NCBI RefSeq assembly: GCF_003334785.1
Contig: NZ_QOWV01000003.1
Reading direction: 5' to 3' (one strand)
Length of the DNA stretch: 64,000 bases
DNA from: Escherichia coli
Lineage (GTDB): Bacteria > Pseudomonadota > Gammaproteobacteria > Enterobacterales > Enterobacteriaceae
Positions 48,593 to 48,972 of this stretch are shown one piece after another; within the stretch, counting starts at the first letter, position 1, and the number at the start of each line of letters is the position of its first letter. A program made the position numbers and the translations under genes. The notes below the pieces were generated by a model. That model saw only the letters and a program-made list of their open reading frames with translations. It was not told the DNA's origin and did no database searches.

Positions 48593-48972
48593 GCCTGATA
48601 AGACGCGCGAGCGTCGCATCAGGCAGTCGGCACTGTTGCCGGATGCGGCGTAAACGCCTTATCCGGCCTACGGAGGGTGCGGGAATTTGTAGGCCTGATA
48701 AGACGCGCAAGCGTCGCATCAGGCAGTCGGCACCGTTGCCGGATGCGGCGTAAACGCCTTATCCGGCCTACGGAGGGTGCGGGAATTTGTAGGCCTGATA
48801 AGACGCGCAAGCGTCGCATCAGGCAGTCGGCACCGTTGCCGGATGCGGCGTAAACGCCTTATCCGGCCTACGGAGGGTGCGGGAATTTGTAGGCCTGATA
48901 AGACGCGCAAGCGTCGCATCAGGCATCTGGCACCGTTGCCGGATGCGGCGCGAGCGCCTTATCCGGCTTACC
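48593..48972. repeat. BIME: tandem array of about 3.8 copies of a 100-bp REP-containing unit
   Basis: Unit GCCTGATAAGACGCGC.AGCGTCGCATCAGGCAGTCGGCAC.GTTGCCGGATGCGGCGTAAACGCCTTATCCGGCCTACGGAGGGTGCGGGAATTTGTAG repeats at 48593, 48693, 48793 and 48893. Confidence 0.92.

Follow-up and report, generated by a model that had tools for sequence, protein, structure and literature searches.

The yjdM-yjdN intergenic region in the analysed stretch of Escherichia coli DNA (64,000 nucleotides; hereafter, the window) contains a tandem repeat, and the question that this locus raises is what the repeat is, whether it acts on the two genes beside it, and whether the ORFs that run through it are genes. The array is a four-unit allele of REP325, an element that is already known, named, and experimentally dissected. 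A preliminary description made from the sequence left REP325 unrecognised and left unremarked that the K-12 reference array, with 12 hairpins, is longer. Taken together, the analysis makes it very probable that this allele, lying in the yjdM 3′ UTR, protects yjdM mRNA and attenuates yjdN through its hairpins, that its length is variable, and that the ORFs across it are accidental.

Tandem Repeats Finder reported a sole array, at 48592-48971 (period 100, 3.8 copies, 97% matches, 0% indels, score 702), and an independent repeat search returned three 183-nt copies at an exact spacing of 100 bp and 95-100% identity, which is the pattern sought in the self-alignment that the preliminary description had proposed. 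Both searches and the flanking genes bear out its claim of about 3.8 copies of a 100-bp unit between yjdN and yjdM, and its interval of 48593-48972 stands for the array apart from a trivial shift of one base. Tandem copies of 100 bp that agree at 97-100% are far outside chance; the 17-nt linker core is seen 3 times in the window, where 0.15 occurrences are expected. The array lies in the yjdM-yjdN intergenic region on the minus strand, as do both genes.

The units give four full-length minus-strand matches to the Rfam family RF02564 (naRNA4, nucleoid-associated noncoding RNA 4) at 95, 106.7, 111, and 111 bits (gathering threshold 59.5 bits), but only 53-55 bits on the plus strand. The higher-scoring strand is consistent with transcription from yjdM. 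naRNA4 is one of the six REP325 repeat RNAs, each a Y-l-Z2 unit joined to the next by a "U" motif, encoded in the yjdM-yjdN interval of MG1655 (Qian 2015, PMC4550694), and REP325 consists of Z2 and Y in alternation (Harris 2026, bioRxiv 10.64898/2026.03.23.713779). Two of the window's units (48692-48768 and 48792-48868) are 100% identical to the naRNA4 consensus, and, base for base, its four units match units 1, 5, 5, and 6 of MG1655, counted from yjdN. Thus, the naRNA4 matches, the units identical to the consensus and to MG1655, and the yjdM-yjdN location identify the array as REP325. The features of the locus are as follows, all on the minus strand.

49389-49417, minus strand: sigma-70-like promoter match CCGACA-17-TATAAT upstream of yjdM (consensus match only)
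48986-49321, minus strand: yjdM (phnA), the upstream gene, 100% identical to an annotated RefSeq genome
48592-48971, minus strand: REP325-type BIME-2 array, 3.8 x 100 bp, eight palindromic units (Tandem Repeats Finder, repeat search, Rfam)
48892-48968, minus strand: Y-linker-Z2 unit adjoining yjdM, RF02564 95 bits, identical to the yjdM-adjacent unit of MG1655 (naRNA1 position)
48792-48868, minus strand: Y-linker-Z2 unit, RF02564 111 bits, 100% identical to the naRNA4 consensus and to the MG1655 naRNA2/naRNA4 core
48692-48768, minus strand: Y-linker-Z2 unit, 111 bits, exact duplicate of 48792-48868
48592-48668, minus strand: Y-linker-Z2 unit adjoining yjdN, 106.7 bits, identical to the yjdN-adjacent unit of MG1655
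48738-48771, minus strand: Y palindromic unit, example GTAGGCCGGATAAGGCGTTTACGCCGCATCCGGC, hairpin of -19.5 kcal/mol with an internal mismatch
48638-48671, 48838-48871, and 48938-48971, minus strand: remaining Y units
48689-48724, minus strand: Z2 palindromic unit, example GCCTGATGCGACGCTTGCGCGTCTTATCAGGCCTAC, hairpin of -21.4 kcal/mol, z = -6.5
48589-48624, 48789-48824, and 48889-48924, minus strand: remaining Z2 units
48725-48737, minus strand: inner 13-nt linker between Y and Z2, AACGGTGCCGACT
48625-48637, 48825-48837, and 48925-48937, minus strand: copies of the inner linker, with point variants in the terminal units
48669-48691, minus strand: inter-unit 23-nt "U" linker, transcript UACAAAUUCCCGCACCCUCCGUA, C-rich (10 C, 2 G) and unstructured
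48769-48791 and 48869-48891, minus strand: copies of the U linker
48085-48528, minus strand: yjdN (phnB), the downstream gene, 100% identical to an annotated RefSeq genome

The array had first been called a BIME array, and it belongs specifically to BIME-2, with eight alternating Y and Z2 palindromic units. BIME-2 elements are described as inverted Y and Z2 units with short linkers, in near-identical copies at each locus and in variable number (Ton-Hoang 2012, PMC3333891). In the window, the units are Y and Z2 and not Z1, matching naRNA4, which is defined as Y-l-Z2; successive units are inversely oriented, so that on the minus strand Y typically opens with GTAG and the Z2 of the same unit, oriented opposite to it, closes with CTAC. 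Both are imperfect palindromes of 30-40 nt, each hairpin containing an internal mismatch or bulge. The GTAG motif at the foot of the palindrome is kept in 6 of the 8 units: GTAG/CTAC is present in the six internal palindromic units and degenerate in the two outermost, as GTAA replaces GTAG in the yjdM-proximal Y, which also carries a CUCG loop variant, while the yjdN-proximal Z2 lacks its terminal CTAC and has GGCG for GTAG on its own strand. The tandem copies are separated by linkers of 13 and 23 nt, the linker to the next unit (TACAAATTCCCGCACCCTCCGTA) measuring 23 nt with the shared TAC/GTA counted, and copy number ranges from 0.8 to 5.8 units in 59 sampled genomes. The IHF consensus WATCAANNNNTTR does not occur within the array, and identity with BIME-1, whose long linker contains an IHF site, was rejected on this ground. 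Four other loci in the window exceed the naRNA4 threshold, at 69-84 bits: 8429-8499(+), 19035-19105(+), 19148-19218(+), and 46036-46116(+). These are other BIME-2-type elements, and RF02564 thus acts as a generic model of a Y/Z2 pair rather than as a model of a locus-specific sRNA.

The last of these pairs, 46036-46116(+), adjoins phnD/phnE. phnE itself is split into overlapping minus-strand ORFs (45230-45598 and 45448-46080, within a region of about 45230-46080), 2.9 tandem copies of the 8-bp unit CGCCAGCA lie at 45590-45612 in the phnE region, and the closest RefSeq genome likewise has phnE annotated as frameshifted. The split resembles the K-12-type cryptic phnE frameshift, switchable by strand slippage. 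Rfam also matched STnc630 at 54634-54799(+) with 182 bits, sraL at 1051-1191(-) with 153 bits, and a bacterial SECIS element at 21687-21741(-) with 87 bits, the last presumably belonging to a gene for a selenoprotein, for example fdhF.

The TGA stop codon of yjdM (48988-48986) lies 14 nt ahead of the first palindromic unit, and the ATG of yjdN lies 63 nt past the end of the array. From its sequence, the match at 49389-49417 is a candidate promoter of a yjdM-array-yjdN transcript. In the wider neighbourhood, phnC is found further downstream, and crfC upstream on the opposite strand. The window's crfC (the rdcA/yjcZ neighbour) is an intact ORF at 49722-51950 encoding 742 aa; the gene is annotated as frameshifted in FDAARGOS_1248 (4473-6700 of the extracted locus) and has an internal stop in strain Sanji (2030 onward of the extracted locus).

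Variation at the locus was surveyed in 5,426 complete E. coli genomes, a phylogenetically unbalanced collection with many K-12 laboratory derivatives. A first BLAST survey including the repeat was confounded by thousands of genome-wide REP matches; flank-only and junction queries were used instead. The flank-only query (two 500-bp flanks) found matches in 5,418 of the 5,426 genomes, and insert sizes were read from 59 records, evenly stepped down the match ranking, as follows.

About 80-83 bp: 0.8 copies, one Z2-Y pair, 35 records
181-182 bp: 1.8 copies, 7 records
281 bp: 2.8 copies, 1 record
381-383 bp: 3.8 copies, the state of the window, 3 records
481 bp: 4.8 copies, 3 records
580-583 bp: 5.8 copies, the K-12 state, 10 records

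A 48-nt query for the inter-unit junction, which is locus-specific and occurs in exactly five places in MG1655 genomes, matched 2,173 of the 5,426 genomes, at 1-10 places each (median 4). Since about 60% of the genomes have no inter-unit junction match, this share is assigned a single Z2-Y pair, in agreement with the 59-record sample. Lengths therefore step by 100 bp, from one pair up to roughly seven or more units, and the commonest state at the locus is the single pair; at the other end, a sampled genome has at least six junctions. In an alignment of 13 strains, the outer junctions are identical and the differences consist of whole units. Strain-variable copy number, suspected in the preliminary description, is thus confirmed by the inserts, the alignment, and the junction counts. 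The highest count, 10 junction matches in a single genome, would amount to ~11 units if all lie at the yjdM-yjdN locus. Twelve junction matches and one yjdN-plus-array match fall on plasmid-labelled records, such as the 18-kb NZ_CP083870.1, which carries yjdN; these may possibly be mis-assigned chromosomal contigs.

In the alignment, four-unit alleles from the window, PSJ-12, ET896, and UPEC69 do not share the same internal unit variants, and expanded arrays are found on two distinct haplotypes of flank and terminal units. Equal array lengths have thus arisen more than once. At the same time, 20 kb around the window's locus is identical in several natural isolates (MDK6L1, AH21, UMNF18, and others), so that the window allele is stable within a clade. 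The 12-hairpin array of K-12 is an expanded minority allele; its carriers make up about 16% of complete genomes and include many laboratory derivatives of K-12. This population picture, with a minority K-12 array, a single pair as the commonest state, and recurrent equal lengths, is a modest new addition to what is known of REP325. In strain N921 (NZ_CP176484.1), which has a 5.8-unit array, an IS1A copy lies at 1865-2562 of the extracted locus, between yjdM and crfC. An insertion of IS1 into the N921 array itself was considered and rejected, as the element is upstream of yjdM and outside the array; being just upstream of yjdM, it could change the promoter of the yjdM-array-yjdN transcript.

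At the RNA level, each 77-nt unit folds into two hairpins at -42.8 kcal/mol (z about -5; -4.8 for 48692-48768), with the 23-nt U linker unpaired. When the window's Y/Z2 pairs are compared, compensatory changes are seen at 4 of 24 hairpin pairs. A fold of the whole array (441 nt, z = -11.6) was set aside, for it contains long-range pairing of distant inverted units and is uninformative on co-transcriptional folding; single units were folded instead. A consensus scan of the minus strand found no intrinsic terminator within 48592-48971, and a Rho-independent terminator was rejected; what comes after the hairpins is a C-rich or mixed linker and not a U-tract. The same kind of scan gave no promoter-like match in the stretch from the array to yjdN. 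Across the array, C outnumbers G (132 versus 106). The co-orientation with both genes, the strand-specific hairpins, and the lack of U-tracts and of an internal promoter fit the picture established in MG1655.

That picture comes from the 12-hairpin MG1655 allele throughout, and mainly from a 2026 preprint. When REP325 is deleted at its native locus, the yjdM/yjdN RNA ratio falls from ~35 to ~1, with yjdN up about 10-fold and yjdM down about 3-fold, and in plasmid constructs in which yjdN is present, removal of REP325 leaves yjdM mRNA >160-fold lower (Harris 2026, bioRxiv 10.64898/2026.03.23.713779). The transcripts of REP325 make up a ladder, each species ending in a hairpin inside the array (Harris 2026). 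Bicyclomycin raises read-through of the full array from 23% to 39%, whereas 2- and 4-hairpin fragments show no sensitivity to the drug (Harris 2026). We infer the same dual role for the window's 8-hairpin allele, which would be both a barrier to 3′ decay of yjdM and a leaky, partly Rho-dependent attenuator of yjdN. Judging by strand, anatomy, and the MG1655 experiments, the array would lie in the 3′ UTR of yjdM within a minus-strand yjdM-yjdN co-transcript driven by the yjdM promoter. The RNA would fold as it is transcribed into a row of stable Y/Z2 hairpins with unstructured linkers between them. The hairpins would then stop 3′-to-5′ exonucleolytic decay, protecting yjdM mRNA, and together with the C-rich inter-unit linkers would attenuate transcription, keeping yjdN low. 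A 2024 preprint, citing the finding, states that REPs located no more than 15 nt from a stop codon lower translation of the upstream gene and counts REP325 among the cases. The 14-nt spacing between the yjdM stop and the array is preserved in the window, and this mechanism may apply here too.

The length series suggests a further reading, which we hold to be rather unlikely: that copy number is a heritable rheostat of the yjdM:yjdN ratio, with the 23-nt U linkers jointly acting as a distributed Rho-loading (rut) site. The number of U linkers is three in the window, five in MG1655, and zero in the single-pair allele of the majority. If this were true, the single pair would only stabilise mRNA, long alleles would also terminate transcription, and the four-unit allele would be intermediate; the 12-hairpin "model REP" of K-12 would then be an atypical expanded allele. 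That the inter-unit linker, restricted to multi-unit alleles, is C-rich and unstructured in the RNA is again a modest new addition, and such a linker may account for the requirement of Rho dependence for a long array. The natural alleles offer a ready series on hairpin number in relation to termination and mRNA stabilisation.

Variable length also bears on the best-surviving alternative to selected protection and attenuation, namely that the array is a selfish element maintained by a REP-associated transposase (RAYT) and that its effects on the neighbouring genes are incidental. The highly polymorphic and homoplasic copy number, including the four-unit alleles with different internal units, counts in its favour, and variation in copy number is a known trait of the BIME-2 family (Ton-Hoang 2012, PMC3333891). 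In vitro, TnpA-REP needs the GTAG/CTAC tetranucleotide and the stem mismatch (Ton-Hoang 2012, PMC3333891), and both are kept in the six internal units and lost in the two terminal ones. In addition, REP325 has been predicted to be a RAYT-associated REPIN, and exonuclease protection under stress has been seen for it (2024 preprint). However, the same observations are compatible with a regulatory effect, as deletion in MG1655 alters yjdM/yjdN expression and growth (Harris 2026); moreover, the array is stable on plasmids, and in vivo RAYT is a putative agent of change in BIME copy number. We consider the selfish reading somewhat improbable. Under protection and attenuation as the preferred reading, the array changes length by 100-bp units, probably through unequal recombination or slippage between near-identical units, or possibly through the action of the transposase on the internal, GTAG-keeping units.

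A global role has also been proposed, in which the array transcripts naRNA1-6, typified by naRNA4, bind HU, bridge cruciform REP DNA, and condense the nucleoid. The window's units are bona fide naRNA4 matches, and the model was built on HU binding, decondensation upon REP325 deletion with rescue by plasmid-borne naRNA4, and 3C contacts dependent on both HU and REP325 (Qian 2015, PMC4550694). The affinity of HU for naRNA4 is moderate, with a Kd of about 32 nM (Harris 2026). However, that later study, which shares a senior author with Qian 2015 (PMC4550694), found nucleoid area unchanged by marker-less deletion or over-expression, no stable ternary complex, and no Hi-C enrichment of REP-REP contacts (Harris 2026). 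The role in nucleoid condensation is now disputed, and REP325 is the model locus for both sides of the debate on whether REP RNA shapes nucleoid architecture. The survey described above adds that ~60% of complete E. coli genomes have one Y/Z2 pair only, so that a long array is not a species-level requirement, and the four further loci above the naRNA4 threshold within 64 kb mark such units as generic BIME-2 pairs. A global role is accordingly improbable for the window's array, and the minority status of the 12-hairpin state, set against the two hairpins of about 60% of genomes, is a caveat on generalising from MG1655.

Similarly improbable is a role exerted by the DNA itself, as a high-affinity site for DNA gyrase (or Pol I) or as a cruciform topological element between the genes. 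Espeli and Boccard in 1997 reportedly described BIME-2 elements as gyrase binding and cleavage sites, and palindromes whose hairpins are this stable could extrude as cruciforms. However, the strand-asymmetric Rfam score and the co-orientation of yjdM and yjdN suit a role in RNA, and the deletion phenotypes are accounted for by local RNA effects.

There remain the ORFs, which the preliminary description had already regarded as by-products of the repeat, and whose duplication, start sites, and artefactual nature are upheld here.

48619-48819 and 48719-48919 (span 48619-48919), minus strand: artefact ORFs encoding an identical 66-aa peptide
48777-49241, plus strand: artefact ORF of 154 aa from the ORF list, with a GTG start in the repeat, antisense to yjdM

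The twin ORFs overlap by 101 nt and lie in different genomic frames because the period of 100 is not a multiple of 3 (100 mod 3 = 1), and the GTG start of the 154-aa ORF has siblings at 48677 and 48877. The 66-aa peptide contains 16 arginines (24% of residues); an arginine-rich peptide and ORFs on both strands are as expected for GC-rich palindromes. The repeat peptides match no NCBIfam family, no CDS is annotated inside the array at the 13 RefSeq loci inspected, and 29 of 30 sampled junction matches have no annotated CDS. For the 66-aa ORFs, neither a conserved frame nor membership in a family was found. What can be said for small arginine-rich proteins is that the frames are open, with ATG or GTG starts, that the RefSeq genome L-formLTE has a pseudo "hypothetical protein" CDS in the array (920-1228 of the extracted locus), and that the exact 66-aa sequence is held by NCBI as a "hypothetical protein" in a 53-member cluster. 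Many members of that cluster are partial calls at contig ends, which suggests that the array breaks short-read assemblies, and one 35-aa member is misnamed mannitol-1-phosphate 5-dehydrogenase; these entries are database pollution picked up by gene callers and not evidence of a gene. The exact sequences of the 154-aa and a 58-aa plus-strand peptide are absent from the NCBI protein collection. With identical peptides in different frames, an ORF of 201 nt that cannot exist in most strains because their allele is ~80 bp long, no family, and no annotated CDS, a coding role has next to no probability and was rejected: the ORFs are reading-frame accidents of a GC-rich repeat. For annotation, the region is best labelled REP325/BIME-2 (naRNA-type repeat), with ORFs through the array suppressed.

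Among known systems, the closest is REP325 of MG1655 (RF02564 naRNA4/CssrE), which shares with the window the locus, the outer junctions, the strand, and the 100-bp unit plan of Y, 13-nt linker, Z2, and 23-nt U linker. It differs in having six units, 12 hairpins, and about 580 bp, as opposed to four units, 8 hairpins, and 381 bp in the window, and in carrying the variants CACCATT, AGTTGGCACTGTT, and a GGATGG linker, which are missing from the window array. The window array cannot be derived from that of MG1655 by one simple deletion. With the BIME-2 family at large, in the Gilson/Bachellier classification, the array shares the alternation of units, short linkers, near-identical tandem copies, variable number, and extragenic position, and no substantive difference is apparent (Ton-Hoang 2012, PMC3333891). 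Only the linker names diverge: Qian has an inner "l" and an outer "U", the classical scheme S and s/l/r.

REP elements that stabilise mRNA from the 3′ side, of which the malE-malF REP is an example, and those that act as Rho attenuators have in common with the window a hairpin array in a 3′ UTR, co-oriented genes, the lack of a U-tract, and the favouring of the upstream gene. Attenuation at BIMEs was reportedly described by Espeli in 2001 (cited in Harris 2026). Typical REPs are much shorter than the window array, and within REP325 Rho dependence is seen for the full 12-hairpin array only (Harris 2026). REPIN/RAYT systems, in which a domesticated Y1 transposase mobilises REP doublets, share with the internal units the GTAG motif and the stem mismatch required in vitro for binding and cleavage by TnpA-REP. 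No RAYT gene was seen in the 64 kb of the window. The doublets of these systems are dispersed, in contrast to the window's tandem array, which is fixed at one locus with constant outer junctions.
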